Origin: a virus
Taxonomy: Duplodnaviria > Heunggongvirae > Uroviricota > Caudoviricetes
Direction: 5' to 3' (one strand)
Virus record (IMG/VR): IMGVR_UViG_2737471850_000005
Length of the DNA: 9,461 nucleotides
Shown: positions 563-677 of the stretch, in pieces
Layout of the letters: every line of letters starts with the position of its first letter
How positions within the stretch are numbered: position 1 is the first letter of the stretch
Made by a program: the position numbers and the translations under genes
Notes under the pieces: model-generated
What the model saw: only the letters and a program-made list of their open reading frames with translations
What the model was told of the DNA's origin: nothing
Databases searched by the model: none

Positions 563-581
563 GTTGTCACCTCAAAATGCA

Positions 582-601
582 TACTGTATGCATATACAGT
601 A
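582..601. promoter_or_regulatory. LexA (SOS) box TACTGTATGCATATACAGTA
   Basis: Palindromic CTGT-N8-ACAG with TA flanks, differing at only 2 central positions from the consensus TACTG(TA)5CAGTA. It lies in the divergent intergenic region between the minus-strand 79-aa ORF and gtrA. Confidence 0.75.
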
Positions 602-677
602 CATCTTATTCTGATAGTCGATCAAGTTGTCTGTTGGTGCTAAACTTCTGCCTTCTCAGAATTGACTGATTTTTCTA

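Follow-up and report, generated by a model that had tools for sequence, protein, structure and literature searches.

The intergenic region at positions 563-677 of IMG/VR virus record IMGVR_UViG_2737471850_000005, a 9,461-nt stretch of Caudoviricetes DNA referred to here as the window, separates a minus-strand SOS operon from a plus-strand gtr operon, and is probably composed of a non-switching gtr core promoter set back-to-back with a separate, LexA-repressed SOS promoter. In the arrangement proposed, a first module (618-677) would comprise a P22-type gtr core promoter and 5' untranslated region (UTR), with a -35 hexamer containing the site called GATC-4 in P22 and a transcription start near 653, and would be constitutively active near the 'intrinsic' level; any influence of Dam methylation at GATC-4 would be of a non-switching sort. 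The second module (563-625, minus strand) would be the LexA-repressed promoter of an operon encoding a 79-amino-acid (aa) protein and a UmuD'-like protein, and LexA bound at 582-601 would block this SOS promoter only. The elements concerned are the following, the 101 unique loci being those of the survey described below.

563-677, intergenic region of 115 bp between the start of the 79-aa open reading frame (ORF) and that of gtrA, from ORF calls
568-573, minus strand, Shine-Dalgarno sequence GAGGTG of the 79-aa gene, read from the sequence (cACCTC in the consensus of the 101 unique loci)
582-601, LexA box TACTGTATGCATATACAGTA, a 20-mer and an exact TACTGT-N8-ACAGTA
596-601, minus strand, predicted -10 hexamer TACTGT for the SOS operon, supplied by an arm of the LexA box
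620-625, minus strand, predicted -35 (TTGATC) of the SOS-operon promoter, separated from TACTGT by an 18-nt spacer (602-619)
618-623, plus strand, gtr -35 hexamer TCGATC, by homology to the P22/LT2_I promoter (PMC3688519; PMC2909390)
620-623, single intergenic GATC, homologous by position to P22 GATC-4 and placed at -58 relative to the gtrA ATG
638-646, plus strand, gtr extended -10 TGcTAAACT (TG 638-639, TAAACT 641-646), aligned to TGCTACACT of P22, ST104 and BTP1
about 653 (+/-2 nt), plus strand, putative gtr transcription start, transferred from P22 and BTP1 via MAFFT alignment A1
653-677, plus strand, gtrA 5' UTR of about 25 nt, with high information content in the 101 unique loci

The 115-bp extent given for this region in the initial annotation agrees with the ORF starts, the 79-aa ORF beginning at 562 on the minus strand and gtrA at 678 on the plus strand as a divergent pair.

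The gtr core promoter

In alignment A1, TCGATCAA is invariant and is followed by 12 nt, the extended -10 (TGCTAcACT), a UTR of about 25 nt and gtrA, with divergence upstream. The window sequence TCGATCAA-N12-TGcTAAACT matches P22, ST104 and BTP1 column by column, so that the -35, the -10 and the start are conserved, and the spacer between -35 and -10 is 17 nt. In P22, GATC-1 to GATC-4 lie at -110, -97, -46 and -33 of the mapped start and the -35 contains GATC-4 (PMC2909390), and the start of BTP1 gtrA*, mapped by differential RNA sequencing (dRNA-seq), is that of the phase-variable gtr LT2_I (PMC4413052). The window shares with P22/gtr LT2_I a homologous core promoter together with GATC-4, the start and the 5' UTR. 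It differs in having none of GATC-1 to GATC-3, neither OxyR half-site A nor B, and no left arm of half-site C; in alignment A1 the LexA box stands where P22 has half-site B.

BLAST homology to the gtr loci of Shigella and Salmonella phages begins at window position 618 (query position 56), and in E. coli PK5, whose SOS operon is 96% identical, homology ends at window position 606 and is followed by an acyltransferase gene, not gtr. Because gtr homology starts at 618 and PK5 SOS-operon homology stops at 606, a module boundary can be placed between the LexA box and the gtr -35. The Shigella flexneri serotype-converting phages, for which no evidence of phase variation is reported (PMC3688519), resemble the window in this respect: BLAST homology starts at the same position in SfI and SfIV, and in SfII and SfV the homology upstream of gtr stops just before TCGATCAA. 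SfII keeps the single GATC at -58 and in SfV the GATC there is mutated; the upstream neighbour in both is attP with int, whereas in the window it is a LexA-controlled gene.

A sigma-70 consensus scan of 400-900 called neither the gtr nor the SOS promoter and returned only two minus-strand sites, both within the 79-aa ORF. This miss is not taken against the promoters, since the thresholds exclude both TCGATC (3/6) and TACTGT (3/6).

From the -10 to the gtrA ATG (647-677; tCagaccttTC.GAAtt.AcTGATTT.taTaATG), conservation across the 101 unique loci exceeds that of the surrounding DNA. No obvious Shine-Dalgarno sequence was recognised in the gtrA 5' UTR, and for the region together with this UTR an RNA-fold check was not significant and searches of Rfam and for tRNA gave no match. 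The conserved segment may be a translation or regulatory signal.

Probable absence of the Dam/OxyR switch

The phase switch requires a choice by OxyR between sites AB and BC, each protected via a GATC pair. The regulatory region described by Broadbent (2010) has four GATC sites in two pairs, 13 bp apart within each pair, and three OxyR half-sites at fixed spacing, and neither feature is found here. A computational recount gave one GATC in the intergenic region, at 620-623 as originally reported; the nearest others are at 536-539, in the 79-aa ORF, and at 1087-1090, in gtrB, and with 26 found in the whole window against 34.8 expected the motif is not enriched. When 480-700 was rescanned, no GATC-N9-GATC pair with up to one mismatch and no OxyR half-site-like 15-mer (ATMGNTNNNANCKAT, up to two mismatches) appeared, in accord with the earlier statement that the paired architecture is missing, and the right arm of half-site C (TCGATC) is the sole surviving part of a half-site. 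The -35/GATC-4 and the -10 are kept and a LexA/SOS module replaces the upstream signature from 618, a core-promoter-only arrangement. Lacking GATC-1 to GATC-3 as well as every half-site element other than the right arm of C, module 1 would be unable to bind an OxyR tetramer or to set alternative methylation states. Relative to the gtrA ATG, GATC sites are placed as follows.

P22 and ST104: -135, -122, -71 and -58
Window: -58 only
SfII: -58 only, within the proximal 300 nt
E. coli Z142-3: -58 only
Enterobacter phage vB_Ecl_MII_003: -71 and -58

BTP1 also has its counterpart of the fourth GATC at -58, with GATC-3 retained as well.

Regions reduced in this way have been examined experimentally. 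A P22 fusion spanning -45 to +34, in which GATC-4 is the only GATC, was uniformly Lac+ at 349 Miller units (MU) against 791 MU for the full ON state, or about 44%, and its output was somewhat lower in a dam mutant (PMC2909390). The gtr operon SCB67_I of S. Choleraesuis, with just -35/GATC-4 and -10, is not phase variable (PMC3688519). Both resemble the window in having these two elements only and both are non-phase-variable (PMC3688519; PMC2909390), although the P22 minimal promoter, unlike the window, is an artificial construct. Among Salmonella gtr operons, 16 of 59 are entirely without the signature (PMC3688519), and in BTP1 'a 365 nucleotide sequence disrupts this signature' and a lacZ fusion was uniformly ON (PMC4413052). 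The non-switching behaviour of homologous truncations bears out the suggestion that this cassette is 'regulated differently' from phase-variable gtr operons (PMC2909390; PMC3688519; PMC4413052). The absence of a Dam/OxyR switch is thus supported by analogy, and is in kind already-known biology.

It is hardly credible that some phase variation persists through the remaining GATC and cryptic OxyR sites. GATC-4 is kept within the -35 and Dam does affect the intrinsic P22 promoter (PMC2909390), but the region has one GATC and no OxyR half-site, switching is not seen in constructs reduced to GATC-4 or to half-site C (PMC2909390; PMC3688519), and BTP1 is non-switching even with both GATC-3 and GATC-4 (PMC4413052).

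The same junction in Salmonella prophage BTP1

A tblastn search with true HumD matched BTP1 in two pieces, just upstream of gtrA* and on the opposite strand. The order there is the start of humD*, TACTGTATATTAATACAGTA, an 18-nt spacer, TCGATCAA, 12 nt and TGCTACACT, and relative to P22 a segment of 66 bp (GATC-1, GATC-2 and OxyR half-sites A and B) is replaced by 386 bp that hold a humD remnant and a LexA box. Judged from its sequence, what disrupts the signature in BTP1 is an SOS module under LexA control, and its junction with the gtr core promoter is that of the window; neither LexA nor humD occurs in the text of the BTP1 paper (PMC4413052). BTP1 is like the window in its UmuD'-type gene divergent from gtrA, LexA box, 18-nt spacer, TCGATCAA, TGCTAcACT and conserved UTR. 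It is unlike the window in that GATC-3 is kept and half-site C is intact, in having a frameshifted humD as its SOS gene where the window has an operon for proteins of 79 and 111 aa, and in its cargo (gtrA*-gtrC/oafB), an acetyltransferase with a truncated gtrA.

In uninduced BTP1 lysogens gtrA and gtrC are expressed at more than 100 transcripts per million (TPM; 10.1101/787010). Since gtr is uniformly ON and expressed at this level in uninduced lysogens, where LexA should be in place, LexA bound at the junction position does not shut the gtr promoter, and by analogy we infer that gtr expression in the strain carrying the window is constitutive and essentially LexA-independent.

The LexA box and the predicted SOS promoter

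The box TACTGTATGCATATACAGTA has the CTGT-N8-ACAG core and AT-rich centre of a LexA operator and, when read directly, shares 18 of 20 positions with the palindromic consensus TACTGTATATATATACAGTA; TACTGT-N8-ACAGTA was not matched once in 200 shuffles of the window. It lies 19 nt from the start codon of the SOS gene and 16 bp from the gtr -35, and the distance of 77 bp from its end to the gtrA start codon, given in the initial annotation, is correct (678 minus 601). Among the 134 surveyed loci its flanks are conserved; the core does not vary there, having been part of the search pattern. Another exact CTGT-N8-ACAG (CTGTATCTGCGTACAG) is present at 4841-4856 within the tailspike gene and is probably a chance match, because its centre is not AT-rich and the TA flanks are absent.

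On the minus strand the order is TTGATC, an 18-nt spacer, TACTGT inside the LexA box, GAGGTG and ATG, such that the predicted -10 falls within the operator and the predicted -35 lies 18 nt upstream, an arrangement in which operator and predicted promoter would overlap. The putative promoter agrees with the consensus at 7 of 12 positions, and its start would be expected at about 589. Nine contexts were compared, five of them unrelated to gtr and taken from E. coli and phage records, and TTGnnn stands 17-18 nt upstream of TACTGT in eight, four of these eight not being gtr-linked; this recurrent spacing supports the assignment, the exact hexamers being predictions. The -35-like hexamers are listed here.

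Window, Z142-3, vB_Ecl_MII_003, BTP1 and HK140: TTGATC
PK5: TTGCCA
CUPF12: TTGACC
N15: TTGCAT
EF7: TTGACA, 18 nt upstream of CATACT

The humD/umuD' modules of P1, phiKO2, N15 and HK140 are like the window in having a LexA box at the start of a UmuD'-type gene and a divergent gene opposite. In HK140 a 79-aa gene (HK140_027), likened to that of the window by length and position, precedes a humD-like gene, and dinI lies opposite this pair. In those four phages the divergent partner is itself an SOS gene (dinI-like or lxr), whereas in the window it is a lysogenic-conversion operon with its promoter outside the box. One LexA site is annotated in P1 'in the regulatory region of lxr and humD', and in phiKO2 divergent dinI-like and umuD-like promoters (gp22/gp23) overlap around one LexA site within a 77-bp intergenic region. 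A single LexA site also lies between the divergent genes uvrA and ssb of E. coli. On the pattern of P1, phiKO2 and HK140, the one box in the window might repress both divergent units and render gtr SOS-inducible, which we consider very improbable. The box occupies -71 to -52 relative to the putative gtr start, with its centre at -61.5, and leaves 16 bp free up to the gtr -35 and 51 bp up to the start, so that the core elements are not occluded; the phiKO2 box overlaps both promoters, a geometry that differs from that of the window, where the box covers no core element on the gtr side. BTP1, with the same junction, has gtr uniformly ON and highly expressed without SOS induction (PMC4413052; 10.1101/787010).

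Direct repression of gtr by LexA is therefore unlikely, the box being clear of both the -35 and the -10. The proposal that LexA occupancy could influence gtr transcription, taken as direct control, is not supported by this placement or by the ON state of BTP1 gtr in uninduced lysogens. The initial annotation had named a gtrA promoter mapping away from the LexA box as grounds for rejecting the link, and by homology, with a start near 653, that is where the promoter maps.

Distribution of the junction

When IMG/VR was searched for CTGT-N8-ACAG followed after 0-30 nt by TCGATCAA, 12 nt and TGNTANACT, the junction appeared in at least 120 viral contigs, and among the matches listed the gap from the LexA box core to TCGATCAA is 18 nt in 116 of 120, 17 nt in three and 15 nt in one. 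The set with the 18-nt gap comprises 134 sequences with enough flank (viral contigs, phage and genome loci, and the window), 101 of which are unique; its spacers fall into at least three main dissimilar sequence classes, or four clusters by single linkage. A scan with the promoter half alone gave, among the 120 matches listed, 83 that are LexA-linked and 37 that are new, 13 of the latter being real gtr promoters, which makes the LexA junction the majority form of the gtr promoter (83 of about 96 real matches listed). Eight of the 13 have attP upstream and no LexA box (seven are SfII-type), two are P22-type with four GATC sites, and the remaining three have half a LexA box (locus L137), a spacer remnant without a box (L136) or a cut by the contig end. 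A gtr promoter persists without a full LexA box in the SfII type, where attP is the immediate upstream neighbour, and in L137, where half a box is left.

Eighteen species-representative genomes contain the junction, 16 of them labelled Enterobacterales, and the genomes include Enterobacter, Citrobacter, Pseudocitrobacter, Pseudenterobacter, Pseudescherichia, Franconibacter and Candidatus Erwinia dacicola; it also occurs in Escherichia and Salmonella, and the junction of SOS operon and gtrA is found in two complete E. coli genomes at 88% identity. It was also seen in contigs labelled Chryseobacterium sp. 18061 (L165) and uncultured Prevotella sp. (L170), for which contamination or mis-binning is likely.

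The divergent gene encodes the 79-aa protein at 47 loci, a UmuD'-like protein of about 101-104 aa directly after the box at 52 and true HumD at 23. In the junction loci sampled, which were selected for an intact LexA box, the SOS ORFs are mostly intact (79-81, 101-104 or 128-129 aa), and the box therefore has an obvious target of its own. Decay of the SOS genes with retention of the box, which would have argued for a gtr-related function of the box, was considered and rejected, as most of the ORFs are intact. Many of the 101-104-aa UmuD'-like proteins start MPRTADIH..., the N-terminus of the 79-aa family, and look like in-frame fusions of both operon genes; they are intact ORFs in many diverged loci.

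Intact gtrA is absent from 24 junction loci, about 10 of which have an acyltransferase under the same promoter. Genes of the acyltransferase-3 type follow the LexA box, TCGATCAA and extended -10 in L028, L038, L048, L052, L066, L087, L092, L118 and others. This replacement of gtrA downstream suggests that the promoter junction is the conserved unit and that the O-antigen-modifying cargo is exchanged.

Predicted overlap of the two promoters

The GATC is common to two overlapping hexamers, the gtr -35 at 618-623 on the plus strand and the predicted SOS -35 at 625-620 on the minus strand, and two polymerases would be unable to use both at once. One possible consequence is promoter competition, in which polymerase would have free access to gtr while LexA is bound and, once LexA is cleaved, occupation of the de-repressed SOS promoter would exclude polymerase from the gtr -35 and gtr transcription would fall. 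This is an unlikely account, albeit one with several observations to commend it beyond the overlap of TCGATC with TTGATC itself: the position of TTGnnn 17-18 nt from TACTGT in eight of nine contexts, including PK5, CUPF12, HK140 and N15; the 18-nt gap in 116 of the 120 contigs among the matches listed, across at least three main spacer classes; the use of the same cassette to drive acyltransferases at about 10 of the 24 junction loci without intact gtrA; and the spread of the junction over 18 species-representative genomes, 16 labelled Enterobacterales. The fixed gap is, however, already explained by the spacer requirement of the SOS promoter and so says nothing specific about gtr. The SOS promoter is weak by consensus (7/12), its occupancy is perhaps too low, and any effect could be negligible. 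No transcript measurements made during the SOS response turned up in the literature searches, and even the sign of the effect is uncertain, given that loss of LexA could free AT-rich upstream DNA for contacts with the alpha subunit. Competition would in any case lower gtr expression during the SOS response, the opposite of SOS-induced modification.

An extension of this idea is that the LexA box, 18-nt spacer, TCGATCAA and extended -10 form a conserved and portable bidirectional promoter cassette in enterobacterial prophages that ties conversion genes (gtr or O-acetyltransferase) to the SOS state. The SOS promoter would take the shared -35 region when LexA is cleaved and O-antigen modification would be turned down, and methylation of the shared GATC could tune both promoters. 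We regard this as decidedly unlikely.

Several points nevertheless weigh against the interpretation that we favour, namely a non-switching gtr core promoter adjoining a separate SOS promoter. The junction in the window is without GATC-3, whereas BTP1, in which expression has been tested, retains it. Overlap of the predicted -35 hexamers (618-623 and 620-625) means that the promoters are not fully independent once the SOS promoter is de-repressed, and the fixed 18-nt gap together with the majority status of the junction could reflect selection on the pair as a unit. LexA centred at -61.5 could hinder or mimic contacts of the C-terminal domain of the RNA polymerase alpha subunit. Neither promoter was called by the consensus scan, and it is from experiments on homologues that the gtr promoter is known, the SOS promoter being a prediction.

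Literature searches for LexA or umuD/humD with gtr or O-antigen modification, including RNA-seq after mitomycin C, found no paper linking them. The recurrence of the junction, its fixed geometry and the LexA/UmuD'-type nature of the replacement DNA, in BTP1 as well, appear to be new; the promoter is of a known non-phase-variable kind and its LexA link is apparently undescribed.

Gene content and prophage setting

The genes around the intergenic region are as follows.

1-336, minus strand, UmuD'-like protein of 111 aa, second gene of the SOS operon (PHROG 3469 'UmuD-like protein', E 6e-41)
323-562, minus strand, leading gene of the SOS operon, for a 79-aa protein without known function (PHROG 3893, full length, E 2e-33)
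678-1040, plus strand, gtrA (Pfam GtrA_DPMS_TM)
1037-1969, plus strand, gtrB (Pfam Glycos_transf_2)
1944-3380, plus strand, gtrC, GtrII-family (Pfam Glucos_trans_II)
3444-4430, plus strand, acyltransferase-3 gene of 328 aa, 3' of gtrC (Pfam Acyl_transf_3, E 9e-35)
after the acyltransferase gene, minus strand, tailspike, head-tail connector and HK97-type capsid genes

The 111-aa protein can be aligned to UmuD' (1umu_A) from its own first residue (GFPSPA). Against the NCBIfam HumD model NF051876 it scores 26.6 bits over residues 6-27 only, below the curated cutoff of 120 for membership of the HumD family, where the Enterobacter phage protein scores 213.5 bits by comparison; just 18 residues align with true HumD, and the SGDSM serine motif is not conserved there. 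Profile searches of Pfam and NCBIfam with the 79-aa protein gave no match, and a search for loci related by this protein yielded just three close relatives. RefSeq calls its homologues 'DNA polymerase V' and PHROG 3893 is a group of unknown function; in view of this grouping and of the lack of a Pfam or NCBIfam match, the RefSeq name looks carried over from the UmuD-like neighbour.

No terminator-like site was found in the part of 3300-4600 that was scanned, which takes in the gap after gtrC and stops short of the acyltransferase stop codon; the acyltransferase-3 gene probably shares a transcription unit with the gtr genes, and this suggests a combined glucosylation and O-acetylation cassette. 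A homologue of the acyltransferase-3 gene in E. coli PK5 (L002 9192-10013) is 94% identical and belongs to an acyltransferase region that IS5 interrupts. The O:5 acetyltransferase gene oafA of S. Typhimurium is reported to sit between umuD and a phage tail-fibre assembly gene, a layout that by description resembles the order of tail fibre, O-antigen modifier and UmuD-like gene (PMC9426603).

The window is identical to GCA_012072605.1 over the 9,380 bases compared, and the exact GtrC is encoded in three NCBI draft assemblies. The chromosome adjoining the prophage, msrP-msrQ-zinT-yodB, is 99% identical to E. coli, and this flank, together with the identical draft-assembly DNA, shows the window to be one end of an E. 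coli prophage integrated beside yodB. An origin outside E. coli, considered since the best match among complete E. coli genomes is just 88% identical, was rejected on the same grounds. Some 570 bp without a long ORF (6915-7487) directly follow the tailspike gene and are succeeded by the head-tail connector and capsid genes; in the related prophage of E. coli Z142-3, unlike the window, the fibre gene is followed by TipJ and tail genes. It therefore seems that the tail module has been lost from this prophage, probably leaving it defective. The L183 assembly is rearranged further and contains HNH and lysozyme genes besides truncated S74 and integrase fragments.

Implications for O-antigen modification

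Glucosylation and acetylation of the O antigen by prophage genes set serotype, phage susceptibility and antibody recognition, and it is the region upstream of gtr that decides whether all cells or only a fraction of them carry the modification. Placement of this cassette in the non-switching class leads one to expect uniform modification throughout the E. coli population, by glucosylation and probably also by O-acetylation. The 'disrupting' sequence of the medically relevant BTP1 prophage is, by its sequence, a LexA-controlled humD remnant. A new kind of system is not demonstrated, and the finding is slightly above routine. If the promoters compete, DNA damage, for example by fluoroquinolones, would alter O-antigen decoration, and if they do not, the junction is a tidy case of modular promoter exchange at prophage ends. 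Were the LexA box and gtr promoter to operate as a portable cassette, it would constitute a second, non-epigenetic route to varying O-antigen modification beside Dam/OxyR phase variation.

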